Source of the DNA: a virus
Direction: 5' to 3' (one strand)
Virus record (IMG/VR): IMGVR_UViG_3300024252_000004
Coordinates: 280,770-344,769 of that record
DNA: 64,000 bases
A model generated the notes under the pieces. It saw nothing but the letters and a program-made list of their open reading frames with translations. It was not told the origin of the DNA and searched no databases. Made by a program: the position numbers and the translations under genes. This document shows, piece by piece, positions 4,889 through 63,534 of the stretch. Every line of letters starts with the position of its first letter. The stretch's first letter is position 1.

Positions 4889-5311
4889 TTGGTTATGTCT
4901 AAACTGTTGAAAAAAAGACCCACTAAGCCAAGGGCACCAACTGAACCAAAAGAAATTTTGTCTTCGTATTCGTCAAAAACAATATACAGTTCATCTATTG
5001 AAGGTAGCGAGATTTTGGAACTCATGAAAGAGTGTAATTGTAGTATTACAGATTTATCTTTTCTCTTTTATGGAGACGACAACTATTCTTGTGACGAGAT
5101 AGAAATAAGTATTAACGCTCCGCTAATGAATAACAAGTATTCTGAGCAGATGGTTGTCTACGAGAGTAAGCTTGAAATCTATCACAAAAAGATGGAAATT
5201 TTCACGGCAAAGCTTTCTCTGTGGAATGAACAGAAGAAGCAAAGAGATGACGAGGCAAAGGCAAAGAAAATTGAAGCTCTTGAGTATAAGCTATCTCAGC
5301 TAAGGAAGTAG
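4889..5311 (+). CDS. hypothetical protein (coiled-coil C-terminus)
   Basis: 140-aa ORF. Confidence 0.45.
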   Translation: MVMSKLLKKRPTKPRAPTEPKEILSSYSSKTIYSSSIEGSEILELMKECNCSITDLSFLFYGDDNYSCDEIEISINAPLMNNKYSEQMVVYESKLEIYHKKMEIFTAKLSLWNEQKKQRDDEAKAKKIEALEYKLSQLRK

Positions 5312-5312
5312 T

Positions 5313-5795
5313 TTGACTCGCCTTAGTGACATACTCGAACGAATATCTGCGAACCCTTACAAGACTATGTCTACTCCGAAGCCCTATGGGAAGTCGGATG
5401 GAGAAAGGCTTGCGGGAGAGTTCTACCTTCAACTTAAGAAGCTTGATTGCATTCGCGGAATTGGATCGGGCATTCTTGAGATCATCGGAACAGATTATGT
5501 TTTGATGGTAAGAGGCACTAAGAGCACAGCAGAGTTGTTTTTTGCCAACAGGGTTTACATCAAACAGGCAAGGAAGCAGTCCCATGAGGAATCAGTAAGT
5601 CTTGATGCAGCCTTTCGTCTCTCTAAAGTGAATGATGAATTCGATGAATTCTTAGCAATTCCACATTTCTTAGATGCTATGGAGGAAATGCCTGAAGAGT
5701 TGCAGGGTTACATCGTAACTAACATTCCGGACTTTGCAGATTATGATGTTTCTGATAGGGTTAGAAAGAATTCTGAGTGGTTGAAAAACGTATAA
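5313..5795 (+). CDS. hypothetical protein
   Basis: 160-aa ORF from TTG; alternative ATG at 5370. Confidence 0.45.
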   Translation: MTRLSDILERISANPYKTMSTPKPYGKSDGERLAGEFYLQLKKLDCIRGIGSGILEIIGTDYVLMVRGTKSTAELFFANRVYIKQARKQSHEESVSLDAAFRLSKVNDEFDEFLAIPHFLDAMEEMPEELQGYIVTNIPDFADYDVSDRVRKNSEWLKNV

Positions 5796-5813
5796 TGCTC
5801 CCATGAGGTGAGC

Positions 5814-6689
5814 ATGAAACCAGTAGTTCTTTTTGATATGGATGGCACATTAACTGAGCCAAGAAAAACAGTAGAAGCTCCGATGCTTCGGGCGTTAGAG
5901 ACGCTGATGCAATACGCTGTAGTAGGCATTGTATCCGGCAGTGATTACGATTACATCTATCAACAGATGGAACTTGATAAAAATGATTTAAAAGATGTTT
6001 TGATTTATCCTTGCAATGGGACAAAGAGATATGTCTATGATCAAGTTAAGAAACGTTGGGAAAATACGTTTTCTGTCGATATGAAAGAGGAGATCGGGGG
6101 CGAGAAGCTTTATAGTTTAATGGAGCTACTTTTAGATTGGCAGCTATTCTATCTTGAATCTGCAAAGAAAAATGGTTTCAAGACGCCCCTTACGGGTTTG
6201 CACTTACAGAACAGAGGCTCCATGATTAACTGGTGCCCAATTGGACGAGGCGCAGATCACGACGAAAGGAAATTGTTTCAGGACTATGATGCAAATACTT
6301 CTTGGCGAGAAGAGACCCTTCCCTTGTTGGAAGATGAAATCGGACTAAGAGTAGAAGGAGTAACAGTTGTCAAAGGCGGATCAACATCATTCGACATCTA
6401 CCCAGACGGATGGGATAAAAGATTTGTCAAAAGATTCCACGAAGGACAAGAACTCTATTTCGTTGGAGATCGATGCGAAAAAGGTGGGAACGATTACGAG
6501 CTTTACGCCGATCTTAAAAGATCCAAAGAAAGTCGCACCTTTGAGCGCAAACAGCTATTCTTTCCCTGGTCTAAAGTCAATCAAGATGAGTGCAAATATC
6601 AAGATTCTTTTAACACCGGATCTCCGGAAGAAACAAGCAGGATCATTGAAGAGGATCTCATCCCGCGTATCGTTAAGGCGCGAGTTTGA
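5814..6689 (+). CDS. phosphomannomutase, eukaryotic-type (HAD-IIB, PMM family)
   Basis: SD GAGGTG then ATG 5814; VLFDMDGTLT motif I, SFDIYPDGWDKRF and GGNDYEL match PMM family; C-terminal ~40 aa extension. Confidence 0.75.
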   Translation: MKPVVLFDMDGTLTEPRKTVEAPMLRALETLMQYAVVGIVSGSDYDYIYQQMELDKNDLKDVLIYPCNGTKRYVYDQVKKRWENTFSVDMKEEIGGEKLYSLMELLLDWQLFYLESAKKNGFKTPLTGLHLQNRGSMINWCPIGRGADHDERKLFQDYDANTSWREETLPLLEDEIGLRVEGVTVVKGGSTSFDIYPDGWDKRFVKRFHEGQELYFVGDRCEKGGNDYELYADLKRSKESRTFERKQLFFPWSKVNQDECKYQDSFNTGSPEETSRIIEEDLIPRIVKARV

Positions 6690-6732
6690 GGAATGTCAAG
6701 ATGAAGTGACAGAGCGCATAGGGTATTTTCAA

Positions 6733-7125
6733 ATGAGCGAGAAAACACTTAAGCCTATTGAACCTATTGATGATATGGTTATGACCATTATCGCTGACCT
6801 TAAGGAACTTGATTGTGTTACAGAGGTAATGGAATCTGGGTGGGAGGTTGGTTATAGGATTCAAGGAACGCCTTTGACTCTTATGGTGGCTCACGATGAC
6901 ATCAAGCCAACATTTCTATTTGTGAGAACAGAAATCTCAGAGGATCTTTTTAACTCATTTTGGGTTGATGACATGAATACAAAAGACCCAAACAAGTTGA
7001 GCCTTTATGTTCCAGTTCGCAAGCTATTCGATTTGGTAGATTTGCCAGAAGAAATGATTGAGTTTTTGGCGGTCAGGATTTCAATGTTTGTTGATGGAGA
7101 TATCTCCGAGCAGCAAGACTTTTAG
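6733..7125 (+). CDS. hypothetical acidic protein
   Basis: ATG 6733 just after PMM stop; same frame open from 6367, alternative start 6586. Confidence 0.4.
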   Translation: MSEKTLKPIEPIDDMVMTIIADLKELDCVTEVMESGWEVGYRIQGTPLTLMVAHDDIKPTFLFVRTEISEDLFNSFWVDDMNTKDPNKLSLYVPVRKLFDLVDLPEEMIEFLAVRISMFVDGDISEQQDF

Positions 7126-7406
7126 TCCTCGTCTTTATCTTCTTTCTTTTCTTTTGGAGCTTCGCCACCAAAGAGCTTTTCCATAAGCTCAGCAAAGTCG
7201 GAGGCATCCTCTGCTTCTTCTGGCATTTCTTCGCCATGACTATGTTCACATATATCAAGCGTAGGCTCATCGGGCATAGGAGATAGTCCCAAAGCAGATG
7301 CAATTTCTGCTGGATCTACTCCTTCTAAAATCAAAATCTCTTGAGCCTCTTTTTTGAAATTAAGGCTGTAGAGGTTTCTGCTTAAACTTACAAGTTTAGT
7401 GTACAT
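7122..7406 (-). CDS. hypothetical protein with acidic Lys/Glu/Asp tail
   Basis: start taken at MYTKLVSL (AGGAGTG 7 nt upstream on minus strand); longer ORF to 7538 overlaps the RF gene start and is likely spurious. Confidence 0.4.
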   Translation of the reverse strand: MYTKLVSLSRNLYSLNFKKEAQEILILEGVDPAEIASALGLSPMPDEPTLDICEHSHGEEMPEEAEDASDFAELMEKLFGGEAPKEKKEDKDED

Positions 7407-7457
7407 AGTACTGTCACTCCTACTAAGATTAAGTATAATAGTAGGACTGGAGGTTCT

Positions 7458-8146
7458 AATGAATTCGATCATATTGGAAATTAAAGCTGCCGAAGGCGGC
7501 ACAGATGCAAAGCTCCTTGTTGATGAACAGTTGGCCATTTATAGGAGATACTGTTCTCGGAGGTCTCTTTGAGTTAGCTCTCTTAGATTCCAGAAGCGGT
7601 TTTATCAGATGCAGAGTCAGCGGCAAAAACGTCAAAAAACATTTTAGGCATGAGCCTGGAGGCCACAGATGGCAAAGGGTTCCTCCGACAGAGAGACGAG
7701 GAAGGGTTCATACTTCTACGATCACTGTCGCTGTCCTACCGGAAGTAACTGAATCTGAAGTTAAGATTAGCGAAAAAGATTTAGAATGGAAAGCCTTTAG
7801 GGGTTCTGGTCCCGGCGGTCAGCATAGAAACAAAACTGATTCTGCTGTGTCGCTTCACCATAAGCCTACTGGAATCAAGATCCGTTCTGAATCTCAAAAG
7901 AGTCAGAAGCAGAATAAGGACACCGCTCTTGCAATATTGAGAGCGAGGTTGCATTCTGAGCAGAGAGAGTCTCAGTCTTTGCGACGCAGTAATATGAGGA
8001 AGAGCCAAGTGGGCTCAGGTATGCGCGCCGACAAAATCAGGACGATCAGGTTGCAGGACGGACAAGTTACGGATCACAACACTGGAAAAAGAATCTCTGC
8101 GAAAAAATATTTGCGCGGAGACTTGGAAGGTCTATTTGAAAAGTAA
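7458..8146 (+). CDS. class I peptide chain release factor, RF1-like (PxT = PPT), lacking domain 1; needs +1 frameshift at 7570 and has an additional +1 frame break at 7499/7501
   Basis: SD GGAGG + ATG 7458; MNSIILEIKAAEGG (frame 0) / TDAKLLVDEQLAIYRRYCSRRSL (frame +1, stops at UGA 7570) / ELALLDSRSGF..GGHRWQRVPPTERRGRVHTS..SGPGGQHRNKTDSA..DKIRTIRLQDGQVTDH (frame +2) align contiguously to RF1. Confidence 0.75.
7559..7573 (+). other. prfB-type programmed +1 ribosomal frameshift site
   Basis: GGAGG-UCU-CUU-UGA-G: SD-like element 3 nt upstream of CUU UGA, same architecture and spacing as E. coli prfB AGGGGG-UAU-CUU-UGA-C. Confidence 0.7.
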
Positions 8147-8336
8147 AGAAGCGATTGCAAAAGTGATGTTTTGGAGAATCGTAATTTCGATTCCGTTAAG
8201 CACGATAGTTACATATTTGTATTACGGTCAACTCTTCAAGGCTATTGGGTTTGTCATCTTGATGAACGTAATGATGACGGCGGCACACTTCGCTTTTGAA
8301 AAGGTTTGGCCTAAGATTTGGAGGAAGCTTGAGTAG
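8136..8336 (+). CDS. small membrane protein
   Basis: 66-aa ORF with two hydrophobic helices. Confidence 0.4.
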   Translation: MKSKEAIAKVMFWRIVISIPLSTIVTYLYYGQLFKAIGFVILMNVMMTAAHFAFEKVWPKIWRKLE

Positions 8337-8434
8337 AAAAGAACACTGCCGGGTTTATTGATCCTGAAATTGCCATCAGACTTGGGGCCAATCGTCAAGG
8401 TTTTGGCGGGAACTGATAAAGTTTAGAGCAAAAT

Positions 8435-8463
8435 TTGCTAAATTTCTCGCAAGATGGTATATA
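8435..8463 (+). promoter_or_regulatory. sigma70-like promoter, family copy 2
   Basis: TTGCTA-N17(AATTTCTCGCAAGATGG)-TATATA; tRNA 8525 follows 62 nt downstream. Confidence 0.6.
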
Positions 8464-8524
8464 TGATTCACGGGATCGAAACGTGCCGACGTAGTTTGGA
8501 TGCCATCTTCGAAAAACAAAATAA

Positions 8525-8617
8525 TGCGGGGTCGACTAGTCTGGCCCATGTCACCAGTCTCATAAGCTGGCTCTGAGTATACCTCAATCGTTGGTTCAAA
8601 TCCAACCCCCGCACCCA
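8525..8617 (+). tRNA. tRNA-like, anticodon CAT on class-II scaffold (19-nt variable arm), CCA encoded
   Basis: acceptor TGCGGGG/CCCCGCA perfect, D stem GAC/GTC, anticodon stem CCAGT/GCTGG loop CTCATAA, variable arm hairpin TGAG-TATAC-CTCA, T arm identical to tRNA 2556. Confidence 0.5.
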
Positions 8618-8629
8618 TAATAGGAAACA

Positions 8630-8866
8630 ATGAGCATCTATAGAGTTCATCACATAGATCTTTTGAATGTTCTGACTTATCTTTCTGCTTTTGATAATAA
8701 TGTACTTGAAAAAATACATTGTGATGGAGAGCAGGGAAGAGTAGTAATCTTTGTAGATCCTAAAGAAATACCCAAAAAAGATCTTGATCTTATTTTGGAT
8801 TGCAATTGCGAAGTGGACGAGGAAGGCTTTTTCATCCTTAAACCCACGATCATTATTGCAAAATAG
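8630..8866 (+). CDS. hypothetical protein
   Basis: 78-aa ORF. Confidence 0.4.
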   Translation: MSIYRVHHIDLLNVLTYLSAFDNNVLEKIHCDGEQGRVVIFVDPKEIPKKDLDLILDCNCEVDEEGFFILKPTIIIAK

Positions 8867-21690: not shown

Positions 21691-21768
21691 GGGGAATTAG
21701 CTCAATTGGCCAGAGCGGCAGATTCTAGACCTGCGACAGTGTGGGTTCGAGCCCCACATTCCCTACCA
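21691..21768 (+). tRNA. candidate amber-suppressor tRNA, anticodon CTA, tRNA-Trp-like body
   Basis: acceptor GGGGAAT/ATTCCCT, D arm GCTC-AATTGGCCA-GAGC, anticodon loop TTCTAGA on stem GCAGA/CCTGC (A-C mismatch at 31-39), 6-nt variable, T arm GTGGG-TTCGAGC-CCCAC, CCA encoded. Confidence 0.5.
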
Positions 21769-44443: not shown

Positions 44444-44846
44444 GGGGGCGTTTTGGATTCGACCGGGTAACAGATAGGAATAGTGCAAGCCGATCAAGGT
44501 AACTCAGATCGTTATAAGCGTTACAAAAAACAAACTAGTTGACGACTATTCATTCGTGTACGCAAACGCAGGCAGAGGCTTCGGCGCTCCTGTAGTAGCA
44601 TACGCCTAATTCCGATTTAGGCATGTGGACTCTGTGTTCCATATATCCAAACACAGATAAGTGGTTGAACGCACTGACATAAACATTGTTCAAAAATGGA
44701 GTAGCCCGAAAGGGAGGAGGCGTCTATCATTTGGCGTCAGGGGATAAAATGAATACTTTGCCTATTTAGAGAAATGGGATAAGCTTGTGAACGACTTGAA
44801 ATTGACGTTATGCGACACGAGGGTTCGACTCCCTCCGCCTCCACCA
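44444..44846 (+). ncRNA. ssrA: tmRNA (SsrA), standard one-piece
   Basis: 5' GGGGGCGTTTTGGATTCGACCGGG and 3' GAGGGTTCGACTCCCTCCGCCTCCACCA match tmRNA termini; acceptor GGGGGCG/CGCCTCC with G3-U70 and A73; tag frame GCA AAC GCA GGC AGA GGC TTC GGC GCT CCT GTA GTA GCA TAC GCC TAA (ANAGRGFGAPVVAYA). Confidence 0.85.
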
Positions 44847-49600: not shown

Positions 49601-50725
49601 ATGAATATAATTCAAGCCAGTAATGCTAACGTAGTAAGGGTTGCGGAGTATTTCCTACCAAAGGAAATTACAAATCAAAACTTAATAATAGCAGGTGGGT
49701 TTGCTACGTGGCTGCTATATTTGCATAAGACCGTAGAAGATTGGGATAAGTTTTTTGCAGACTTAGATGTGAGTCTCATAAATCTTGAGGATAAACGGTT
49801 AAAGGATGAAGCGACAAAAGGTATTGCGAAATTTGGAGATATAGATATCTGGATTCCGGAGAACCATTCTTTAAGAAAGATGAAAATAATCACAAGTCAG
49901 GAGCTTTATCCCTTTGGCCTTAAAGAAAACGCAGGACTTGTGGAGAAAAGTCTTGCTTCCGAGAAATCATTTGAGAAAAGCTTCGGCATTTCCTCTGACC
50001 TTCTGAAGGTTAGCAGATTCGCACACACATATAGGCTTGAGCATACAGTTAAACTTTTAGGAAAAATAGCGGTTCCGTCAGTGTTCGGCTTGTTTGAGCC
50101 AATTGTAATTCCGTATAGAAAGCGAATTAAAATGAGGAATGCTTTTCAGATTATAAGAAGAACCTGTGATTCGTTAGAGGAAGTTTTTTCTACATTTGAT
50201 TTTCACCATACAAGAGCAGCCTACTACAATGGCTTACTACACTTTACAAAAAAAGCTGAGAGGACTTTCGAAGAGAAGACAATCTTTCCGACAAAGAGTT
50301 TCCTTGAGCGACACGATAGCATATCTATTAACTCTGCCTGTAGAGCATTTAAGTATATGGAGAGGTACGGATTTGGCTTCTCAGAAGACTTGGCAGATAA
50401 GATTGCGGACCTGTATCTTCAAGTTGGAATAGCAGAGGATACTGCGGATTATGTTGGCCCTCCAAAATATGCCATCATCAATTTATTCAATGCAACGAAT
50501 CTCACCCCAGAGTATGATCCAGATTATTTAATCTTTTTTTCAGAGATCACTCCAGAAACCTTGAGTAAGGTTAAAGGTATTTATCTTAAAAGATTTCTAA
50601 CATCATTTAAGACATTTTCGAGAATGTCATGCTTTAAAGATGAGTATATAGGTTTGTTGCTATGTTGCGACATGGAAGAAATAAGTAAAGTAATCGAGAG
50701 GCGACTATATGAACAATCCGACTGA
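49601..50725 (+). CDS. hypothetical protein; weak nucleotidyltransferase-like N-terminus
   Basis: 374-aa ORF; IIAGGFATWLLY..DLDVSL..FGDIDIWIPE loosely resembles GS..DxD of pol-beta-type NTases. Confidence 0.45.
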   Translation: MNIIQASNANVVRVAEYFLPKEITNQNLIIAGGFATWLLYLHKTVEDWDKFFADLDVSLINLEDKRLKDEATKGIAKFGDIDIWIPENHSLRKMKIITSQELYPFGLKENAGLVEKSLASEKSFEKSFGISSDLLKVSRFAHTYRLEHTVKLLGKIAVPSVFGLFEPIVIPYRKRIKMRNAFQIIRRTCDSLEEVFSTFDFHHTRAAYYNGLLHFTKKAERTFEEKTIFPTKSFLERHDSISINSACRAFKYMERYGFGFSEDLADKIADLYLQVGIAEDTADYVGPPKYAIINLFNATNLTPEYDPDYLIFFSEITPETLSKVKGIYLKRFLTSFKTFSRMSCFKDEYIGLLLCCDMEEISKVIERRLYEQSD

Positions 50726-52395: not shown

Positions 52396-53100
52396 ATGAA
52401 GAGAGTCGTCATATCCGACATTCACATTGGCAGCCAATATTTTAAGGCGGTTGAGCTTTTGCGTTTTTTAAGTGAAGTCGAATATGATGAGTTAATTTTA
52501 GCAGGGGACATTATTGATTTCATCAAGGTCCCTGAGTTTACTGACCGTGCTTTAGCAATCGCACGCACAGTTGATTACTCAAAGACTATCATTTATGTTG
52601 TTGGAAATCACGATACCCCGCTCAGAGGGTTTATTGGCAAAGAATTCTTCGGCATCAAATTTGTTGACAAATATGAATTTGAAGAAGGCGGAAGAAAGTT
52701 TAGGGTTGAGCATGGGGATGCCTACGATCATCCTATTCTTCAGAACAAAATATTTATGACGCTACTGTCTATCGTTCACGATGCGATTGAAAAGATCACA
52801 GAGTTCGATATAACTACTTGGTGGTCAGATTACAAGATTAAAAAGAGAAAGCTACGACGTATCTGGGATATTTTGAAAAAGAATAAAGACGTTGACGTAT
52901 TTATAATGGGGCATTCGCACCATCCAGAGTTTGTAATTTGGGGACTTCCTGATAAGGATGATATTTCTATCAAGACTTATGTAAACACTGGAGATTGGGT
53001 CTCGCATCAGACCTATGTTGAAATCATTGACGGAATTGTGAGGTTGAAAGATTATGGAGCAGGAAACACTGATATTGGATCGGACGAATTTACCGATTAA
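52396..53100 (+). CDS. metallophosphoesterase (LpxH/calcineurin-like)
   Basis: ISDIHIG..AGDIID..GNHD..EHGD..MGHSHHP..NTGDW motif series. Confidence 0.65.
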   Translation: MKRVVISDIHIGSQYFKAVELLRFLSEVEYDELILAGDIIDFIKVPEFTDRALAIARTVDYSKTIIYVVGNHDTPLRGFIGKEFFGIKFVDKYEFEEGGRKFRVEHGDAYDHPILQNKIFMTLLSIVHDAIEKITEFDITTWWSDYKIKKRKLRRIWDILKKNKDVDVFIMGHSHHPEFVIWGLPDKDDISIKTYVNTGDWVSHQTYVEIIDGIVRLKDYGAGNTDIGSDEFTD

Positions 53101-53743
53101 CGAGTGGCTTAATTACATAGACAGTGAGGGCTGCGGATTAGATTTAGTCATTACCGACCCTCCATATCCATTCGATAACAAAAATGGCTCAGGGAGACAC
53201 TCCTATCATGAAGGTGCCGACCTCATGTATCATAGGATGGACTGGAAGGAACTTCAGAGTGTTTTTGTCAAGATTAAAGATTTAATGAATGATGGTGGAA
53301 GAATCTATGTTTTCTCCAATCGTGATGGATATGAAAAGACGAAACAGCTCATGCTCGATGCAGGCTATCGTTACCTTAATACTATCGTTTGGGATAAAGA
53401 AAGGTTTGGTGGCGGGTATCACTGGAGGAATTCAGTCGAGTACATCCATTATTTCTGCAAGCCAAAGAAGCCAGCAGTCCTTGTCAAAGGTGCTCGCAAT
53501 GTGTTTGAGTATAAGAAGCCTACAAAGAAGTGTGCTATTCCTGAGATTGGTTATGACCCAGCGTCCAATGACTCTCCGAAGCCTCACGAAATATGGAGAG
53601 ACATCATATTGCATGGCGGAGCAGAGGGTGATGTAGTAGCAGACCCATTTGCCGGCTCTGACCCATTGTCAGCAGCACTACTTTTGAACGACGAACTTGC
53701 AGAGAAGGTAAGTAGAGCATATACAAATTCTTTTGATGTTTAA
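53054..53743 (+). CDS. DNA N6-adenine/N4-cytosine methyltransferase (beta class)
   Basis: ITDPPY motif IV upstream of AdoMet motif DPFAGSD; no restriction partner nearby. Confidence 0.75.
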   Translation: MEQETLILDRTNLPINEWLNYIDSEGCGLDLVITDPPYPFDNKNGSGRHSYHEGADLMYHRMDWKELQSVFVKIKDLMNDGGRIYVFSNRDGYEKTKQLMLDAGYRYLNTIVWDKERFGGGYHWRNSVEYIHYFCKPKKPAVLVKGARNVFEYKKPTKKCAIPEIGYDPASNDSPKPHEIWRDIILHGGAEGDVVADPFAGSDPLSAALLLNDELAEKVSRAYTNSFDV

Positions 53744-53809: not shown

Positions 53810-55411
53810 ATGGGAAAAGTTGTAAAGATTGGACCTGAAGCAAGAAAAGAAATGCTTCAAGGTGTAGATATTTTAGCAAACGCCGTTAAGGCCACTCTTG
53901 GTCCGCGAGGAAGAAACGTTGCTATCGAAAGGGAATGGGGTCACCCGCTTATTACAAAAGATGGTGTGACTGTAGCTCGACAGATCAGATTGGATGATAG
54001 AATTCAGAACATGGGAGCACAGTTGGTGCGTTCGGTTGCAGCCGCAGCAAATAGCGCGGCAGGAGACGGGACAACAACTGCAACTGTTCTCGCTCAGGCA
54101 ATCTACTCCAAAGGCTTAGTTCTTGTAGACGAAGAGGGACTCAACCCTGTTCTTCTTAGACGCGGCATTGACCTTGCTGTGACAAAACTTTCAAGTAGAC
54201 TGAAGGGCTTATCTGCATCTGTAAGCGATGAAGCAAGCATGAGAAGTGTTGCTGTAATCTCTGCAAATAATGATAAGGTTCTCGGTGCCAAAATCGCAGA
54301 AGCTATCGCGGCAGTTGGTCAGCACGGAGTCATTTCCGTTGAGGAAGCGACTGGAAGATCAACTGAGGTGTTCTACTCGGAAGGTATCAAGCTCGATAAG
54401 GGATGGACCTCTGAGCATTTCGTGACAAATTCTGCAAGATTTACGGCAGAATTTGATGATTGTCTTATATTTCCTTATGATGGGGCGATTTCCAGCATCA
54501 CTGATGTAAGGGAAATTTTTGAGGAATTAGCCGAGCAATCCAAACCCGTTCTTTTGGTTGTAAAGCAGATCACAGATGAAGCTATTGCTCATCTTGTCTA
54601 CAACAAGATTCAGGGAAATATTAGAATCGCGGTAGTTCGTTCTCCTGGGTTTGGTGATTCGAGACGTGCATTCCTCGAAGACCTTGCCATTGTTTCTGGC
54701 GGAAAGATGTTCTGTGATAATGACGGAATCGGTCTTGACGGAGCAACAGTTGCTGATCTTGGGACCGCACGCAGGGTCATCGTAAGCCAGAACAGCACAA
54801 CTATAATTGAAGGTGGGGCAGATCCCAAAGATGTTGAGGCGAGAGCCATTCAGATTAAAGAGCAGCTTACTGCTGGTGGTCAACATGATTATCAGCTTGA
54901 GATTCTAAAAAGCAGACTTGCAAGAATCACTGGCTCGGCAGCGATTTTTAAGGTCGGCGGAAAATCTGAAGCTGAAATGAGAGAGAGAAAGGACAGAGTG
55001 GAAGATGCTATCAACGCTGTACGTTCAGCGCTTGAAGAAGGTGTAGTTCCCGGTGGTGGCTCCGCACTAATTCATGCCCTTCCAGTCCTTGACGAGATTG
55101 AGACAGATGGCCTTCTTCCTGAAGAGGTGGCCGGCATTGGAATTATCAGAGAGGCAGTTAAGGCCCCATTTTATCAGATTCTTGATAACGCCGGAGTCAC
55201 TGGTGCTGATGATTTTGTTGAGCAGATTTTGAATTCTGATGAGCCAAGCGGTTATGATGCTCTTAATCTTGAGTTTGTAACTAACATGTTAGACAATGGG
55301 ATTATGGATCCTTGTAAAGTTGTAAGAAGCTCTTTGGAGCATGCTGCATCAGCCAGTGGAACACTGCTGACGACAGAGGTTGCAATTTACGAAACTGAAA
55401 CGGAGAGATAA
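53810..55411 (+). CDS. groL: chaperonin GroEL (Cpn60)
   Basis: 533 aa; MGKVVKIGPEARKEMLQGVDILANAVKATLGPRGRNV..AGDGTTTATVLAQAI..full-length GroEL similarity. Confidence 0.9.
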   Translation: MGKVVKIGPEARKEMLQGVDILANAVKATLGPRGRNVAIEREWGHPLITKDGVTVARQIRLDDRIQNMGAQLVRSVAAAANSAAGDGTTTATVLAQAIYSKGLVLVDEEGLNPVLLRRGIDLAVTKLSSRLKGLSASVSDEASMRSVAVISANNDKVLGAKIAEAIAAVGQHGVISVEEATGRSTEVFYSEGIKLDKGWTSEHFVTNSARFTAEFDDCLIFPYDGAISSITDVREIFEELAEQSKPVLLVVKQITDEAIAHLVYNKIQGNIRIAVVRSPGFGDSRRAFLEDLAIVSGGKMFCDNDGIGLDGATVADLGTARRVIVSQNSTTIIEGGADPKDVEARAIQIKEQLTAGGQHDYQLEILKSRLARITGSAAIFKVGGKSEAEMRERKDRVEDAINAVRSALEEGVVPGGGSALIHALPVLDEIETDGLLPEEVAGIGIIREAVKAPFYQILDNAGVTGADDFVEQILNSDEPSGYDALNLEFVTNMLDNGIMDPCKVVRSSLEHAASASGTLLTTEVAIYETETER

Positions 55412-55769: not shown

Positions 55770-57344
55770 TTGATTGAGGTGAACGTGCGTAAGCTTGCAG
55801 ACTTAGAAGTTACAGAGAAGACAGATCCTGCTACCGGAAATAAAATCCGTATTAGCACGACTGCTCGTCTTGCGTTGAGAATTATGTTTCCAAAGTTTAC
55901 TGAAGAAAGGAATGCGAGACTAAATGATCGAATGGCATTCATGTTCAGTAATTCAGCAGGCAACGTTGTTCACCGTTTCAAATTAGGGAACAAAGATACC
56001 GGAGCATGGCGCCCAGCGGAACCAGATTCTGGTGAACAGAATAATAGAGAAGTTGCTGAAATTAGGTCAGGCCCAGGCGGAGACTTTTTCTTCATTTCTG
56101 CTATTAGGCAGGGATACATTGATATCTTAACATTACAAGATAATTGGAAGCAGGGAAAGCCTAATCAAGGTGGATCAAAAGGTGCTGGCGCAGGAGCCGG
56201 TGATGGAGATGTATCTTTGGCGAGTCTGAATATCGACATGAGTATATTCGGAGCTACTAATAAAACGAATTTGGACAGAAACAGGAGACATAACATGTCA
56301 GCATTGCGCATTCTTGCAGATTTAGCAAACAAGTTGGACAGTTTTGGTGAGACCAAGGCTGCTGATGAAGTAACCAAGATGATAGAGAAGAGAGCTAGGT
56401 GGCCTTTTGGAAAGGCGGACGAAGAGGAAGAATTTCCTGCTGCCCCTCCAGTCCCTAAGCCTCCTGTGTCTCCACAGTCTTCTCCATTTTTAAGAGGAAC
56501 AATTCCTCCTGCGCCGCCTATGAACCCTGTTGTTACGACCAGTCCGGAAGGTTTCAGCGATGCTCCAGTTGCTGAACCAGCAGAGTCAAGAGTAGTTGGA
56601 AAGCTTGGTCCGATTAGGCCAGACAAAGATCCTTACTCTTACGAATTCCTTCCTTCCGAAGGTGTCTTCAGAGTTTCCAGCTACACTTATGGGCCAGGAG
56701 CGGCCCCTAACCCAAGGGCAGAGAGAGCCGTTGGCGCACATATTACAAGAGAAAATGCAAGAGCTTGGGCTGTATTGTCCGAGTATGTTCCAGAAGGGGA
56801 CAAGTCCCCTTCCGAAGGGAGACATCTTCTCACAGAGTCTACAGGTGATCCTGCAAGAGACTGGAAAGAAGCACAGCTTCAGTTTGCTGGCTGGGTTAAC
56901 TCAGGACACTTTGGTACTGAACTTCAGAAGAAGTTTAGACTTGCAGACCCGGGTATGCCAATGCGTCAGCTTATGGATGCAGAGCTTTCTCCAGAGAGTG
57001 CGGGATTCCTTGTTGAAAGGTTTGAGGCAATGATTGCTGGAAATGTTCTTTCGGATCTAAAAGATCCTGAGACTCTCCTCAGATATGCTCTTGAGCTTCA
57101 GAACTATGCTCATCTTGCTAACAGGGCAAGGGCAGTAGGTCAGCAGTCAATGAGAGAATCTGAGACGGTCATGTCTCCGGGTGGATACCCATCATCATAC
57201 CCATCATCATCAGAGGCTGAAGATTTCACACTGGCATCTATGGACTCAATAGAGGATATAAGAAAGAAGGCATCTGCTAACGTAGATAGGCTTGCAGCAC
57301 TTTTCACAGTCCCAGGTGGAAGCGGTCCTTTCGGAAGGGACTGA
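55770..57344 (+). CDS. hypothetical protein (524 aa; Pro-rich centre, possible virion protein)
   Basis: GTG start; long ORF. Confidence 0.5.
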   Translation: MIEVNVRKLADLEVTEKTDPATGNKIRISTTARLALRIMFPKFTEERNARLNDRMAFMFSNSAGNVVHRFKLGNKDTGAWRPAEPDSGEQNNREVAEIRSGPGGDFFFISAIRQGYIDILTLQDNWKQGKPNQGGSKGAGAGAGDGDVSLASLNIDMSIFGATNKTNLDRNRRHNMSALRILADLANKLDSFGETKAADEVTKMIEKRARWPFGKADEEEEFPAAPPVPKPPVSPQSSPFLRGTIPPAPPMNPVVTTSPEGFSDAPVAEPAESRVVGKLGPIRPDKDPYSYEFLPSEGVFRVSSYTYGPGAAPNPRAERAVGAHITRENARAWAVLSEYVPEGDKSPSEGRHLLTESTGDPARDWKEAQLQFAGWVNSGHFGTELQKKFRLADPGMPMRQLMDAELSPESAGFLVERFEAMIAGNVLSDLKDPETLLRYALELQNYAHLANRARAVGQQSMRESETVMSPGGYPSSYPSSSEAEDFTLASMDSIEDIRKKASANVDRLAALFTVPGGSGPFGRD

Positions 57345-58921
57345 TGGAGAAAAAGACGCCGGGGTTTTCATTAGATGATTTAGTTCCATCTGAAGAAGCT
57401 GCGTCAGGCATGCACGTTCCTGTAGGGGAGATGATGTTTGCAATCCCGAATAAAGCAGATGATGAAGAGATTGAGGAGGAAGGTATGGAAAAGGAAGCCT
57501 TAGGCTTGACCAGTATGCCTCAATCTTTATATGGCGGCGAAGTTCTTGACCTGCCAGGAAGTCCTCAGCCTTCTGGACTCAGCAGAGAACAGGGCGAGGA
57601 TGAAGAGACTGAATTTTTTGGAGCTAAAGAGGAGGGCGTAGATCTTCCTCCAGAACATTACAAAACTCAGAAGAAACAGGGAATCTCAGAAGATGATGAA
57701 ACAGATGAAGAATTCTTTGACTTCTTATTTACTAACAAAAGTCACAACTTCCTGAGAGAGGAATCAAACATGAGACACTTAATTGAGAAATTAGCCGAAG
57801 GGTTAGATAAGGTTGGAGAAAAGGACGCAGCACTTGTTGCATTGGCACTTACCGACGATAGAATAAACTATTCGGAGTCTGTAAAACCTCCTGCACCTGA
57901 TAATTCTGCCCCTGATTCGAGAAAAGATGAAATCTATAAAAAATTAGTATATGATTTTGGGATGATTACAGATTGGCTTTATCGCCCAGACGGTGAATTT
58001 ACACCCAACAAATTAGAGAAAATGTGGGAAATGCTCAAGCAGCGCAAGCCTGCGCTGAGTGATGACAGAAAAGCGGAATTTATGAGTCTTGCAAAAGAGT
58101 GGGGGATGCAAGATCGTTATGGGGAAAGTTCTGCGGAAGAAGTTTCGACCGGCGAAGGAGTGCTTGCAAAGCCAGCAGAGCAGCCGTCTGGCGGAGTAAC
58201 TCCGGTAGCTAAGCCAAGATCCGGCTGGGAAGGTTACTTCGCAAATGGTGGACCAAAAGGCATGAAAGCCGCCTGGGAAGCATGGGTGGCAGCCAACCCT
58301 AATCAGGGATATGATGCGTCTTTCTTGTCATGGGTTAAGTGGTACAGGAAGCAGGTTACAGATAGAACCATTCCGTCTGGAGGTAATGTAGATGCTGTTC
58401 TTAGACTATTAGGAGGGGCTGCTCCCGCAGCGCCAGCCGCAAAAACAGATGAGGCAGCTAAGCCTGCTGAGGATACTGAGCCACCTATTGCAGAAGAGGG
58501 TAAGCCTCCAAGAGAGGCAATGGAAGAATACTTCAGAGCTATTTCTTCTAAGACAAGAGAAGCGAGAATCGCAGGTCCGTTAAGACTAAGAAACGCAAGA
58601 GTCAGAAGAAGAATCAGAAGACTCGGAGATCCAGCAGCGGCAGTAGAAGCTGTTCTCTCTTTCAGAGGCGGAGGCGATGTTGAGAAGGGTCTTGCGCTTT
58701 ATGATAGTTATGATCAGACACAGACACCTGAAGGAACAGAAGAGCGCGGTGGCAAAACCGTATCAACCTACAAGATGTCTGAGTTCCAAAACAAGGCAGT
58801 CAGTGATATCCTTACTCTGAAAGTAAGGGATTATAGAGCTGGCAGAGGACGTACCAGAAGAAGCGTGGCTTTTGAGGACAGACAAGATCAGCTTCTAAAG
58901 ATGGCAGCAGAAAATTCCTAA
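57344..58921 (+). CDS. hypothetical protein (525 aa; acidic N-terminus, Ala/Pro-rich linker)
   Basis: ATGA overlap with previous gene. Confidence 0.5.
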   Translation: MEKKTPGFSLDDLVPSEEAASGMHVPVGEMMFAIPNKADDEEIEEEGMEKEALGLTSMPQSLYGGEVLDLPGSPQPSGLSREQGEDEETEFFGAKEEGVDLPPEHYKTQKKQGISEDDETDEEFFDFLFTNKSHNFLREESNMRHLIEKLAEGLDKVGEKDAALVALALTDDRINYSESVKPPAPDNSAPDSRKDEIYKKLVYDFGMITDWLYRPDGEFTPNKLEKMWEMLKQRKPALSDDRKAEFMSLAKEWGMQDRYGESSAEEVSTGEGVLAKPAEQPSGGVTPVAKPRSGWEGYFANGGPKGMKAAWEAWVAANPNQGYDASFLSWVKWYRKQVTDRTIPSGGNVDAVLRLLGGAAPAAPAAKTDEAAKPAEDTEPPIAEEGKPPREAMEEYFRAISSKTREARIAGPLRLRNARVRRRIRRLGDPAAAVEAVLSFRGGGDVEKGLALYDSYDQTQTPEGTEERGGKTVSTYKMSEFQNKAVSDILTLKVRDYRAGRGRTRRSVAFEDRQDQLLKMAAENS

Positions 58922-58942
58922 GCCAATTTAGAATGGAGCAGA

Positions 58943-58972
58943 AACAAGGAGGGCTTAGCCTTCCTTGTTTGC
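58943..58972 (+). terminator. candidate intrinsic terminator
   Basis: AACAAGGAGG-GCTTAG-CCTTCCTTGTT then TTGCG. Confidence 0.45.
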
Positions 58973-59014: not shown

Positions 59015-59087
59015 GGAGCATGTCCGTAGCTCTTAGTAGTTGCCTTGTATTCGCTTCGGTACTATTATCGCTCATGGAGGAATTTAC

Positions 59088-60098
59088 ATGTTGTTATCCG
59101 CAGATGTTGTAGTGGGGCTCGCTTGGGGCGATGAAGCAAAAGGAAAGATCACCTCAGCCTTGGCAGCTACAGGGCAGTACGACGCCGTGGCTCGCTGGGC
59201 CGGAGGCAATAACGCAGGCCATACGGTCTACGTCAATGGCGAAAAATACAAAACACACCTTGTTCCAAGCGGCGTATTCCACGGAATGCTTTCCATCGTT
59301 GGTCCCGGCTGTGTATTGCATCCAGAAGAATTTGAAAAAGAATTGGCTTACCTCGCAGGACACGGATTCGATACCTCTCTTGTGAAGGTATCTCCGAATT
59401 GCCACATTGTTCAAGACGAGCATATTGAGTTTGACAAGCAGAACCTTGCAAAGAAGCTTGGCACAACCTCAAAAGGTATTGCACCGAGTTACGCAGCTAA
59501 GGCGGCAAGAACAGGTCTTCTTGCCAAAGACTATTACGAAGGCAGTGACATCCTATGGGACGGTCAGCTTAGCGGTGTATTATTGTGTGAAGGAGCGCAG
59601 GGGGCTTGGTTAGATATTGATCACGGGAATTATCCCTATGTGACCTCAAGCATTACACTTGCCTATGGAGCTTGCAGTATAGGCTTCGCACCACAGCTCA
59701 TTAAGAGCATCTGGGGCGCTGCCAAAATTTATGACACAAGAAGCGGAGAAGATCCTATTTTTCCTGCGTCACTACTTGATGACCCTATGCTGTCAAAGGT
59801 TGGGGAAATTGGGGCCGAATATGGTGTGACCACAGGGCGCAGAAGAAAGGTAAATTGGCTTGATGTTGATATGCTGATTAAGTCTATCAATTTGACTGGA
59901 TGCACACACGTTGTTGTTAGCAAATGTGATGTATTGGAAGAGGCCGGAGTTTACAGGATGTATTGTAGAGGGATTCAGAACGAGCTTTCTGAGTTCGAAA
60001 GCATTACCGATATGACCGGAGTGCTGGAGACTCTTCTTAGAAAGAATTGTTCCCTTCTCAAGAGAGTGATCTTTTCCTCTTCACCGGAGAATATATGA
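59088..60098 (+). CDS. purA: adenylosuccinate synthetase
   Basis: SD GGAGG + ATG 59088; VVVGLAWGDEAKGK P-loop and GGNNAGHTV motif. Confidence 0.85.
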   Translation: MLLSADVVVGLAWGDEAKGKITSALAATGQYDAVARWAGGNNAGHTVYVNGEKYKTHLVPSGVFHGMLSIVGPGCVLHPEEFEKELAYLAGHGFDTSLVKVSPNCHIVQDEHIEFDKQNLAKKLGTTSKGIAPSYAAKAARTGLLAKDYYEGSDILWDGQLSGVLLCEGAQGAWLDIDHGNYPYVTSSITLAYGACSIGFAPQLIKSIWGAAKIYDTRSGEDPIFPASLLDDPMLSKVGEIGAEYGVTTGRRRKVNWLDVDMLIKSINLTGCTHVVVSKCDVLEEAGVYRMYCRGIQNELSEFESITDMTGVLETLLRKNCSLLKRVIFSSSPENI

Positions 60099-60931
60099 GT
60101 AAAAGAAGTATGTTGATATATCATGCCAATTGCCCTGACGGCTTTGGCGCGGCATATGCATTTTGGAAAAAATACGGATATGGTATTGATTACTGTGCAG
60201 TAAAGCATGGTGATCCGATACCGGATGATATTGACGACAGAGATATCTGGATAGTAGATTTCTGTTTTAAGTTTCCAGAAATGGATGAAGTGATTGAAAG
60301 AGCTAAGAGCGTGGTCGTTATCGATCACCACATTACGGCTATGGAATCGATGGAGGGCGTTACTCGTCCGAATCTTGAAACCATATTTAAAATGGATAAC
60401 TCAGGCGCGGTGTTGGCATGGAAATACCTTTTCCCTGACGAAGACGTTCCAAAGATTCTTCAGTACATTGAAGATAGAGATATTCATAAGTGGGAGCTAG
60501 AGGGTGCCGAAGCACTTTTGGCTAATCTTGATTCTAATGAAAAGAATCTTGAAATCTGGGATGATTTTGCTCAAGACATTGAGACCTCAAGAGGTTTGAT
60601 GAATCAGATTAAGGGCGGAAGAATTCTTCTTGATTACAAAAAGGAGATCAGTGATTCCATTAAGAGAGGCATGTATTACATGACTATCCGAGGAATTGAG
60701 TTCCCTGTCATTAACACCGCAGTGATATTCCGTGGAGACATCCTTTCGGAGATTGCTGATAGTACAGATTTTGGCGTAGCGGCTGCTTATAATTTTGACG
60801 GAAAGCATTATGTCTTCTCGTTAAGGTCGAGAGGCGAAGTCGATGTTGCTAAGATTGCGGAATCGTTCCCCGGTGGTGGCGGGCACAAAGGAGCCGCAGG
60901 GTTTTCGGTCCTTACTATGGAGGACCTTTAG
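60095..60931 (+). CDS. DHH/DHHA1 phosphoesterase (NrnA-like oligoribonuclease/pAp phosphatase family)
   Basis: ATG 60095 overlaps purA stop (ATGA); VVIDHH DHH motif and GGGGHKGAAG DHHA1 motif. Confidence 0.7.
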   Translation: MSKRSMLIYHANCPDGFGAAYAFWKKYGYGIDYCAVKHGDPIPDDIDDRDIWIVDFCFKFPEMDEVIERAKSVVVIDHHITAMESMEGVTRPNLETIFKMDNSGAVLAWKYLFPDEDVPKILQYIEDRDIHKWELEGAEALLANLDSNEKNLEIWDDFAQDIETSRGLMNQIKGGRILLDYKKEISDSIKRGMYYMTIRGIEFPVINTAVIFRGDILSEIADSTDFGVAAAYNFDGKHYVFSLRSRGEVDVAKIAESFPGGGGHKGAAGFSVLTMEDL

Positions 60932-60965
60932 CTCTTCACAATACCCGGAGTGAAAAATTTAATAT

Positions 60966-61712
60966 ATGGAGATAAACAAGAGAACACCTCAAAGTATTCT
61001 TGAAGAGTTAGCGAATTACAAAGATGCGACAATGTGGAATTTTATCAAATGCTTTTCTAAATTATCCCTTGGCAAAGAGGAGATAAGAAGTTGCTATACA
61101 ACTTATTACCACATTGGCGGAGAAGAGAATAATTCGTTAAGTTTTCGAAAAATCATTGAGAAGATGGGGCCAGGGTCAGGAGGAAGTTTTATTAAACTTT
61201 GTTTCACAGTTTACCCTGAGTTATTAGACGAGGTTTTTAGCGACGATCTTGATGACGGAATTATTGGGGCATACGGAATTAATTGGATCCGACTGCTGCT
61301 CGCGCAAAGTGGTTATGTCAGAACGATAAATATATACGATAAGTTGACTGACAGTTCTGACCCATACCTTTATCTGTTCGCGTTGGAGGTATGTTCGATT
61401 GATAAATTAAAAGAACATAAAAGTCACGAGTCAAAGAAGGCACGAAAAATTGTGTTCAGTAGACTTGGTCCTGTGGAATGTTTGAACGATATGCTTCAGG
61501 ACGGTACGAAAGATATACGGGCGCTCGGGGTCAGATTCGCCCCGATGCATTGCGAAATGTTTAACGAAATGAGTGAGGAGGCGGCTTTACAAATTTGCAA
61601 CAATTTGCTAAAAAAAGGTGATGACGAACTAATCGTCATGTTAATGGGAAACAAAAACAACAAGAGCAATGCCTTTTCTGGTTTGCTTAATTTTAGAATA
61701 GAAGAGATGTAA
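60966..61712 (+). CDS. hypothetical protein
   Basis: 248-aa ORF. Confidence 0.5.
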   Translation: MEINKRTPQSILEELANYKDATMWNFIKCFSKLSLGKEEIRSCYTTYYHIGGEENNSLSFRKIIEKMGPGSGGSFIKLCFTVYPELLDEVFSDDLDDGIIGAYGINWIRLLLAQSGYVRTINIYDKLTDSSDPYLYLFALEVCSIDKLKEHKSHESKKARKIVFSRLGPVECLNDMLQDGTKDIRALGVRFAPMHCEMFNEMSEEAALQICNNLLKKGDDELIVMLMGNKNNKSNAFSGLLNFRIEEM

Positions 61713-61714
61713 TT

Positions 61715-61900
61715 ATGGCATACGACAAATCACATTACGGTCCGAAACTCAAAGTCAAAGTCACCAATAGTATTGGTGGCAGAGTAGATTATCACGAAGG
61801 TCTTACTAAATTTGATATTGATTGGATTAAATCTAATCCCAACCTCCAAGTAGAGGTTCTCGAAGTAAGAAATGGAAGACGTAGGCAGCTTAAGAGATGA
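61715..61900 (+). CDS. hypothetical protein
   Basis: 61-aa ORF. Confidence 0.35.
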   Translation: MAYDKSHYGPKLKVKVTNSIGGRVDYHEGLTKFDIDWIKSNPNLQVEVLEVRNGRRRQLKR

Positions 61901-62484
61901 ACAAAGGGAGAGTTATATTTGTGCTCTCCCTTCTTGTTACGTTTCTGGTGGGGTTCAAAACAATGACTCCAGCTTATAACAAACTATCAGATGTGTCGTT
62001 TACTGTTCACGATGTGTGGGCCAATACAAGTGTTCCATTGGGAACGAGGTACATATATCATGGGCAGGATTCGGCGCTTTCTGATAAAGAAGTTGAGAGG
62101 GTGATTAAGAAGACGGAAATAGCTATCCAACATTACTCCAAAGAAAAGGGCTATCCAATGGAGCAATGCAGAACAATCGACACCTTAGAGATTTATTATG
62201 TGAGGCAGGATGAGTTGAACAAAAGAGGAAGATTTCCTATTTTTATGAATGAAAACCTTAGCCCCAATGATGTTGTGTGGGGAGTTTACGATCCTGTAAG
62301 CCAAAGCCCTCATTACGCTGTTTTGATGATATCGAATCCAGGCGGAACCAAGACTGAAGAGACTCAAGCGCATGAGTTGTATCACTATTGGTATGACAGA
62401 TTTTGTTGGGAGCGGCATCACCCTGGAGATCCAGAGTCTGCTGCCCTTGAATTTGAAACCTTTTATGAATTAAACTATATGTGA
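61897..62484 (+). CDS. secreted/membrane-anchored hypothetical protein
   Basis: N-terminal hydrophobic signal-anchor VIFVLSLLVTFLVGF. Confidence 0.45.
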   Translation: MNKGRVIFVLSLLVTFLVGFKTMTPAYNKLSDVSFTVHDVWANTSVPLGTRYIYHGQDSALSDKEVERVIKKTEIAIQHYSKEKGYPMEQCRTIDTLEIYYVRQDELNKRGRFPIFMNENLSPNDVVWGVYDPVSQSPHYAVLMISNPGGTKTEETQAHELYHYWYDRFCWERHHPGDPESAALEFETFYELNYM

Positions 62485-62490
62485 GTTAAG

Positions 62491-63534
62491 ATGAAATTAA
62501 GAAGAGCTTTAGCATTTGATGACGTGCTTCTTGTTCCAAGAAAATCAGAGATACCTTCCAGGCTTGCCGTTGATCCTTCAGTAGACGTTGGTGGAATCAA
62601 ATTAGGCATTCCCCTTATTTCCTCTCCAATGGATACTGTAACAGAAGGACTTATGGCAAAACAACTTGGGCTGCTTGGCGGTCTGGGGATAATTCATAGG
62701 TACTGTTCTGTTAGTGAACAAATTGCTCACTTAAGAATACCAATTGCTGCCGGAGTATATGGAGGCTTTGCAATCGGAGTTGGAGCAGAAGCGGAAGAAA
62801 GATTCTCCATGATTCTGGAAGAATATGGCAGCAGCCTTGATGTTGTATGCATTGACATTGCGAATGGCCATAGCACGCTTATGGAGAGGACCATTAAGAA
62901 AGTTAGAGATATGGCTCCAGATATTTCAATCATGGCAGGAAATGTTGCTACCAGAGACGGATACAGGTTTCTCGCAGATCTCGGAGTAAATTCTGTCAGG
63001 GTAGGTATCGGCGGAGGAAGCATCTGCAAAACGCGAATTCAGACAGGGTTCGGCGTTCCTACATTTTCTTCTCTTCTTTGGGCCGCAGACGCTAAAGAGT
63101 CTGGTAAATACGAGGCGTCCATCATTGCAGATGGAGGCATTAGGCACCCCGGAGATTTAGCTAAAAGCATTGCGGCCGGCGCAGATGCTGTTATCTGTGG
63201 TAGCATCTTTGCTGGGAGCAAAGAAGCCCCTGGTGATGTAATCACATGGACAGATGGCATTGCCTATAAGAAATACAGGGGAATGGCATCGGAAGAGATT
63301 CAGGTAGAGAAGAGGGGCGGAATGAAGCCGGGAACCTGCGCAGAAGGAACGTCTACTCTTGTTAGATATGAAGGCTCCATGAAGAGAGTCACTGAGGAGT
63401 TTGAGGGCGGAATTAGGTCCGCCTTAACTTACAACGGTTCTTGGGATATTCCACATTTCCAGGTGACCGCAGAATTTATTGAGATTACAGATTCTGGATT
63501 AAGAGAGTCTCACTCTCACGGAACAAGGAAATAA
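62491..63534 (+). CDS. GMP reductase-like IMPDH/GMPR-family enzyme (no CBS domains)
   Basis: 347 aa, same length as GuaC; FDDVLLVP, IDIANGHS, catalytic loop GIGGGSICKTR, ADGGIRHPGDLAKSIAAGADAV. Confidence 0.7.
   Translation: MKLRRALAFDDVLLVPRKSEIPSRLAVDPSVDVGGIKLGIPLISSPMDTVTEGLMAKQLGLLGGLGIIHRYCSVSEQIAHLRIPIAAGVYGGFAIGVGAEAEERFSMILEEYGSSLDVVCIDIANGHSTLMERTIKKVRDMAPDISIMAGNVATRDGYRFLADLGVNSVRVGIGGGSICKTRIQTGFGVPTFSSLLWAADAKESGKYEASIIADGGIRHPGDLAKSIAAGADAVICGSIFAGSKEAPGDVITWTDGIAYKKYRGMASEEIQVEKRGGMKPGTCAEGTSTLVRYEGSMKRVTEEFEGGIRSALTYNGSWDIPHFQVTAEFIEITDSGLRESHSHGTRK

Follow-up and report, generated by a model that had tools for sequence, protein, structure and literature searches.

The stretch of DNA analyzed here, a 64,000-nt window of the IMG/VR record IMGVR_UViG_3300024252_000004 (positions 280,770 to 344,769), carries at its positions 59088-63534 three enzyme genes that we tentatively read as a purine-rebalancing gene set, with which a marine huge phage may shift guanylates toward adenylates. 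All three lie on the plus strand. They encode a minimal adenylosuccinate synthetase of the PurA type (59088-60098, 336 residues), a stand-alone DHH/DHHA1 phosphoesterase (60095-60931, 278 residues), and a short-flap enzyme of the IMP dehydrogenase (IMPDH)/GMP reductase (GMPR) family without CBS domain, predicted to be a GMPR (62491-63534, 347 residues). An earlier note on this DNA had placed the three open reading frames (ORFs) at exactly these coordinates and had proposed the same guanylate-to-adenylate logic. This logic is still the best-supported reading, owing to the conserved residues of the PurA-like protein, the GMPR-type flap of the third protein, and an unrelated purine gene cluster on a giant-virus contig. 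In searches with hidden Markov models, the Adenylsucc_synt, IMPDH/GMPR, and DHHA1 domains scored above their cutoffs, and the DHH domain below.

In the proposed route, the DHH/DHHA1 enzyme would complete the breakdown of host RNA, cleaving its short oligonucleotide or dinucleotide remnants to 5'-mononucleotides, while the short-flap enzyme would turn GMP into IMP by reduction and deamination. The minimal PurA would then use GTP to join IMP and aspartate into adenylosuccinate, from which adenylosuccinate lyase, probably that of the host or else a phage copy that was not found, would release AMP. The phage, whose genome of about 414 kb is 57% A+T, would thereby gain adenylates at the expense of surplus guanylates. 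We infer the enzymatic activities, the direction of the flux, and the part of the DHH protein as supplier of mononucleotides, as well as the rationale of the route, namely that the G share of ribosomal RNA exceeds the needs of a genome with 57% A+T.

The PurA-like protein matches Pfam PF00709 (Adenylsucc_synt) at 3.8e-80, scoring 270 bits where the cutoff is 27, and the PHROG family phrog_1211. Compared with bacterial PurA, about 55 internal residues and about 40 residues of the C-terminal region are missing, whereas the residues of E. coli PurA that serve in catalysis or bind IMP, aspartate, and GTP are all retained. Asp13, Lys16, His41, Thr129, Arg143, Gln224, Arg303/305, and Lys331/Asp333 are invariant in 15 purA sequences of the clade. 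The P-loop reads G-D-E-A-K-G-K with its Asp, the guanine-specifying, GTP-type S-K-x-D motif is kept, and Arg303/305 are present for aspartate. In length the protein resembles PurA of Pyrococcus horikoshii (PDB 2D7U/5K7X, 339 residues), to which it aligns in a single stretch. Its scores against the NCBIfam equivalog models, 266 versus a cutoff of 402 (NF002223), 252 versus 396 (TIGR00184), and 177 versus 368 (the archaeal NF003295), fall short because of the two deletions relative to bacterial PurA. Judged by its residues, the protein is a minimal yet, as predicted, catalytically complete adenylosuccinate synthetase.

A short phage-encoded member of this superfamily could also be a PurZ-type enzyme, which makes the precursor of 2-aminoadenine (Z) DNA. 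PurZ and PurZ0 share the superfamily, the phage origin, and a similar shortness with the protein studied here (archaeal PurA is short as well), and the PHROG family even bears the name '2-aminooxy adenylosuccinate synthetase'. Set against this is Asp13, a residue that 99% of PurA proteins share, whereas every phage PurZ protein has Ser in its place (PMC12884076). The PurZ exception model NF038379 yields 92 bits for a cutoff of 300, and among solved structures bacterial PurA is the best match at 1e-57, far ahead of PurZ/PurZ0 at 1e-11 to 1e-5. The GTP-type S-K-x-D motif points the same way; PurZ uses dGMP, and no feature of the phage protein points to that substrate. A PurZ identity, and with it a Z genome, is thus extremely improbable, and we rejected it on the grounds of Asp13, the model score, and the similarity to PDB entries. 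None of the DatZ, MazZ, DutZ, and DpoZ families was found among the 19 window proteins compared with PHROGs and the nine compared with Pfam.

The product of the third gene matches PF00478 (IMPDH/GMPR domain, 3.7e-92) and phrog_9582 ('dehydrogenase', 1.7e-93), and has no CBS domain. The flap rule and the Cys-Thr-Glu criterion used to tell the two activities apart were taken from Hedstrom and colleagues (PMC2525682), according to whom GMPR has no Arg-Tyr dyad and a truncated flap, since the covalent intermediate has to be kept from hydrolysis. In the phage protein, 18 residues separate G-M from A-E-G, as many as in E. coli GuaC and 14 fewer than in E. coli GuaB, and the missing 14-residue segment of GuaB is the one that holds the Arg-Tyr dyad. 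The catalytic triad is kept: the Cys-x-Thr of S-I-C-K-T-R and the Glu of C-A-E-G align with Cys186, Thr188, and Glu289 of GuaC. The segment D-I-A-N-G-H-S is also closer to D-V-A-N-G-Y-S of GuaC than to D-S-S-H-G-H-S of GuaB. A full HMMER search recovered a very large family of relatives of 320-375 residues; 123 CBS-less representatives were aligned, and the short flap is present in all 49 that were printed. The GuaC-length flap together with the missing Arg-Tyr dyad makes GMP reductase the better call, so that the GMP-reductase-like identity put forward in the earlier note stands, and the protein is probably a GMPR. With GuaC and human GMPR2 it shares the absent dyad, the triad, and, for GuaC, the flap length, but it has only about 32-33% identity to canonical GMPR and differs from the GMP reductases in the Lys that follows the catalytic Cys (S-I-C-K-T-R). 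Like the mycobacterial GuaB1 and the GMPR of Trypanosoma brucei, it is nearer in sequence to IMPDH than to GuaC; unlike these two, it has no CBS domain.

This overall nearness to IMPDH counts against the assignment as GMPR, and so against the guanylate-to-adenylate reading. The protein is 43% identical to E. coli GuaB, solved IMPDH structures score 233 bits and solved GMPR structures 167, and the C-terminal E-S-H motif is kept as in E. coli GuaB and not as in GuaC. Were the protein an IMP dehydrogenase, the phage would boost both branches that lead from IMP, to AMP through PurA and to GMP. Besides the overall similarity and the E-S-H motif, two points are compatible with such an activity: IMPDH without Arg418 has a slower Thr/Glu route of water activation (PMC2525682), and in one pairwise alignment the Arg of a 'KRGG' motif falls on the catalytic Arg of Thermotoga maritima IMPDH. 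The dyad Tyr is absent, and the flap is 14 residues shorter than that of GuaB and exactly as long as that of GuaC. As the truncation is common to all the printed relatives and the D-I-A-N-G-H-S segment is GuaC-like, an IMPDH is quite unlikely. Equivalog models lie above the protein on both sides, with 242 against a cutoff of 481.5 for IMPDH (TIGR01302), and 204 against 397 (NF003470), 197 against 344, and 184 against 492 for GMPR.

Some homologs of this protein are much longer (P0247, P0248, P0251, P0254, P0256, and others, of 470-1078 residues) and match it in two or three pieces. The break falls at query residue 175-179 or so, just before the loop of the catalytic Cys, and the large insertions are probably inteins. 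The same kind of insertion may account for the partial matches in loci L016 and L022.

The DHH protein belongs to phrog_4771 ('DHH phosphoesterase', 4e-73), and is recognized by Pfam through DHHA1 (2.7e-6, above cutoff) and less clearly through DHH (4.9e-4, below cutoff). Its AlphaFold2 model, with a mean predicted local distance difference test (pLDDT) value of 95.3, displays the two-domain DHH + DHHA1 fold, in keeping with the identity first proposed for it. Using Foldseek, the neighbors retrieved were DhhP, Pde2/NrnA, the catalytic domain of GdpP, NrnA, and TM1595, at 12-18% identity and with a probability of 1.00 for DhhP, Pde2, GdpP, and NrnA. All of the best structural neighbors free mononucleotides from dinucleotides, nanoRNA, or cyclic di-AMP (c-di-AMP). 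In an alignment of 35 homologs, D55, D77-H78-H79, D127/D129, and G261-G263-H264 (GGGH) are invariant. The first metal-binding motif, motif I, departs from the usual DxD in that its first Asp is an invariant Cys, C13-P-D15 (H-x-N-C-x-D-G). This Cys also occurs in the homologs of the cultured Vibrio phage P2 and Caulobacter phage CcrBL10, where no purA is close by, and the literature search found no description of a Cys variant in DHH motif I. The protein thus shares the fold and the DHH and GGGH motifs with NrnA, NrnB, Pde2, DhhP, GdpP, and TM1595, but compared with the solved DHH/DHHA1 phosphodiesterases it is shorter, at most 18% identical, and has Cys for Asp in motif I. Relatives carry the JGI COG name 'NrnB/cAMP/cGMP phosphodiesterase'. 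From the model, we predict a phosphoesterase resembling the dinucleotide, nanoRNA, and c-di-AMP phosphodiesterases, the substrate itself being unreadable from sequence.

The same neighbors leave room for a different role, in which the DHH protein would be an anti-defense or anti-signaling phosphodiesterase directed at alarmones or at the cyclic messengers of cyclic oligonucleotide-based antiphage signaling systems (CBASS), type III CRISPR, or c-di-AMP pathways. It would then have no tie to purine salvage, and its coupling to purA would be merely an arrangement for expression. The c-di-AMP/pApA phosphodiesterases GdpP, DhhP, and Pde2 are among the structural neighbors, members of the Cys-motif family in Vibrio and Caulobacter phages occur alone, unaccompanied by purA, and a Gad2-like anti-defense domain is encoded about 9 kb upstream of purA. 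For the DHH enzymes of jumbo phages, Iyer et al. predicted a role in countering cyclic-nucleotide signaling (PMC7824862). No sequence feature of the protein, however, points to cyclic substrates, and the strict coupling to purA, seen in 25 of 26 loci, would be left unexplained. To our knowledge, the phage proteins known to destroy immune signals also have other folds, Acb1 being a 2H phosphoesterase and Apyc1 a metallo-beta-lactamase. Overall, we consider the anti-signaling role rather unlikely. The suggestions of the earlier note that the genes could erase nucleotide second messengers or buffer ATP/dATP pools against host defenses that deplete nucleotides are speculative.

A variant of the defense theme includes purA as well. 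The RADAR and Cad1 defenses deaminate ATP or dATP to ITP or dITP. In the Kongming defense, dITP acts as an alarm signal. Against such inosine-nucleotide immunity, the DHH protein would bring (d)ITP or related phosphorylated species down to (d)IMP, and PurA would re-aminate IMP toward AMP, so that the signal would be removed and the adenylate pool restored. This use of the purA-DHH pair has no specific support and is very improbable.

The purine-rebalancing reading draws further on the way the genes are linked. An IMG/VR scan with the PurA-like protein returned 79 loci at 52-68% identity, which local tblastn sorted into about 26 that are syntenic with the window (including L005 and L007) and about 53 with other contexts. 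Across all 26 syntenic loci, purA and the DHH gene are adjacent, and in 25 the distance between the purA stop and the DHH start is 0-10 nt, the exception being L087 with a gap of about 400 nt. In the window itself the genes share an ATGA (DHH ATG at 60095-60097, purA TGA at 60096-60098), exactly as noted earlier. The junction is kept although the DHH protein has diverged to 32-44% identity across these loci. At 60080-60098 and at the equivalent junctions of the 25 loci, the codons for the C-terminal Ser-Pro-Glu of PurA (CCGGAG or similar) double as the Shine-Dalgarno sequence, that is the ribosome-binding site, of the DHH gene. The conserved layout supports translational coupling and co-expression of purA and DHH, and so bears out the co-expression that the earlier note had suggested. 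The gene for the predicted GMPR is present in 22 of the 26 syntenic loci. No description of the purA-DHH coupling, or of its pairing with a short-flap IMPDH-family enzyme, was found in the literature searched.

Independent support for the guanylate-to-adenylate route comes from an unrelated cluster in locus L067 (GVMAG-M-3300021961-22, a giant-virus bin), where purB, a GMP reductase gene, and a short purA of the same type as in the window stand side by side at 4921-8685 and make up the whole route from GMP to AMP. The purB product scores 545 bits for a cutoff of 446 and the GMP reductase, a canonical one, 500 for a cutoff of 397. In a more distant syntenic relative of the window (L087 and L117), purB is found on the same contig about 20 kb away.

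The remaining observations that speak against the proposed role concern classification, linkage, and the last step of the route. The PurA-like, DHH, and GMPR-like proteins all stay under the curated NCBIfam equivalog cutoffs. Each gene also has a life apart from the others: purA is found without the DHH or the GMPR-like gene in about 53 of the 79 IMG/VR loci, the DHH family is alone in the Vibrio and Caulobacter phages, and the GMPR-like gene is alone in Microcystis phage Mel-JY01. The GMPR-like gene is missing from four of the 26 syntenic relatives, and the synteny, being that of a single clade, may reflect only common descent. No purB was detected in the window or in the fetched flanks, and of the best 80 among 166 viral purB loci none belonged to the large contigs of the clade. 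It follows from the separate occurrence of the three genes that the 'cassette' is confined to a single phage clade and is not an obligatory module; the gene order claimed under that name is indeed kept among syntenic relatives, but the term holds within this clade only. One may go further and take the genes for neighbors by descent, separate boosters of nucleotide metabolism that form no guanylate-to-adenylate channel. The solitary occurrences in other viral lineages, the loss of the GMPR-like gene in some relatives, and the three unrelated ORFs between it and the DHH gene would all agree with mere neighborhood. It would not account for the independent origin of the purB-GMP reductase-purA cluster on the giant-virus contig, nor for a 0-10 nt junction that outlasts such divergence of the DHH protein, and it appears unlikely.

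The non-syntenic loci show how widely the minimal purA has spread. In L037 it belongs to a T4-like replication module with gp32, a RecA/UvsX-like protein, a 5'-3' exonuclease, a DnaB-like helicase, and ribonucleotide reductase. In L053 the contig is giant-virus-like and also encodes RING and C2H2 fingers as well as BspA repeats. Both copies fall at 55-60% identity, and the presence of the same minimal purA in the two settings argues for transfer between phages and viruses of eukaryotes. Sequence comparison thus delineates the minimal purA as a virus-wide clade that spans huge phages, T4-like phages, and giant-virus bins.

Upstream of purA, a terminator-like hairpin (AAACAAGGAGGGC...GCCTTCCTTGTTT), whose core was also found by a scan, occupies positions 58942-58970 (plus strand), 3' of a gene for 525 residues, and the relative L007 has a hairpin at the equivalent place. 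A sigma-70-like match, TTGCCT-17-TATTAT, was obtained at 59040-59068 (plus strand) by a consensus scan and is weak evidence of a promoter. Its -10 element ends just 7 nt before the Shine-Dalgarno sequence GGAGG (59076-59080) that precedes the purA ATG at 59088, an awkward position. The window holds 16 sigma-70-like matches compared with 14.2 +/- 3.9 in shuffled sequence, which is no excess. A fuzzy search of the window with the 31-nt promoter region recovered no match other than itself, the enrichment analysis of intergenic 8-mers gave nothing specific and no k-mer family, and the TTG-N16-18-TA...T sites in the window are heterogeneous. The relatives do not conserve the promoter-like site of purA: either it is missing, or the gene upstream extends into purA. 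The phage promoter family under which purA had been placed was therefore not found: the count equals the shuffled expectation, the site has no kin in the window, and it is not conserved.

Between the DHH and the GMPR-like genes lie three conserved ORFs that the earlier note did not mention, all on the plus strand. The first (60966-61712) follows the DHH gene in most syntenic loci and encodes a 248-residue, all-helical, HEAT/ARM-like protein without any Pfam, PHROG, or PADLOC match. Its AlphaFold2 model has a pLDDT of 72, the fold matches are weak and of the alpha-repeat kind only, and a word-based search gave just three close homologs. The second, a 61-residue ORF (61715-61900), is conserved in some relatives, with about 51% identity by tblastn in L007, L016, L020, L022, L063, and L064. 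The third (61897-62484) encodes a 195-residue protein with an N-terminal hydrophobic segment and a HELYH motif, which lies directly upstream of the GMPR-like gene in the syntenic loci at 23-33% identity. This HExxH motif is zinc-protease-like, as far as the pattern tells, and the protein has no match among Pfam or PHROG families. A PADLOC scan of the region found nothing, a result that is uninformative because the library covers defense genes and not counter-defense genes.

As for the wider setting, every gene in the window is on the plus strand and the G+C content is about 43%. The window contains 31 tRNA genes in an array at 874-34845, including one for a CUA-anticodon (amber suppressor) tRNA at 21691-21768. 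Since TAG is still the stop of 12 out of 85 window ORFs of at least 80 residues, wholesale recoding is not evident despite the suppressor. A phage-encoded transfer-messenger RNA (tmRNA) with the tag peptide DDYSFVYANAGRGFGAPVVAYA is located at 44444-44846, and GroEL and a head maturation protease are also encoded. Identical copies of the PurA-like protein occur on marine metagenome contigs of up to 414,644 bp, and the window is part of a marine huge phage with the genome size and A+T content given above. At the DNA level, no similarity to 50,697 phage records was found, and at the protein level all matches in phage records are below 40% identity. Several of the top 'phage' records, among them Listeria phage LM 4-11-1, Staphylococcus phage SA 1306 Kay, and Enterococcus phage Efs 1-1-1, contain a full-length purA or guaB of bacterial type and resemble host contigs deposited as phage.

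Closer to the locus, a 374-residue protein is encoded at 49601-50725. Its identical copy in L001 bears a precomputed match to Pfam Gad2 (PF26128), an anti-Gabija family, while the comparison with PHROGs gave only a weak match to a family of unknown function; the Gad2 match suggests that counter-defense genes lie about 9 kb upstream of purA. The intervals 52396-53743 and 53810-55411 hold genes for a calcineurin-like metallophosphoesterase, an N6/N4 DNA methyltransferase, and the GroEL chaperonin, in an order that is kept in relatives. They are followed at 55770-58921 by two low-complexity proteins of about 520 residues, rich in Pro, Glu, and Ala, which are poorly conserved even among the syntenic relatives and have no Pfam or PHROG family match. 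Beyond the downstream end of the window are genes for a MoxR-type ATPase, a DUF2201 protein, an M16 peptidase, and ThyX, the last of which, about 4 kb downstream, we count in favor of the purine-rebalancing reading.

Genes for purA and GMP-reductase-like proteins have already been annotated in phages, and purA has repeatedly been listed as a viral auxiliary gene in surveys of metagenomes. The locus resembles the auxiliary nucleotide-metabolism genes of huge phages and giant viruses, with host-like purine enzymes amid many tRNAs and chaperones, and presents itself as a plausible, if rather ordinary, viral set of nucleotide-metabolism genes that is built from divergent subfamilies. For the identification of Z-genome phages, purA-like genes that bear Asp13 are not to be counted as PurZ. 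The CBS-less short-flap IMPDH-like family, which is large and mostly viral, bears on how GMP reductase is told apart from IMP dehydrogenase, and the Cys-containing DHH family, common in phages, has a putative metal site. If the reading is true, a widespread clade of marine huge phages would shift the purine pool of its hosts from G to A by means of three compact and divergent enzymes; this would leave current concepts unchanged and extend the catalogue of viral nucleotide-metabolism genes.

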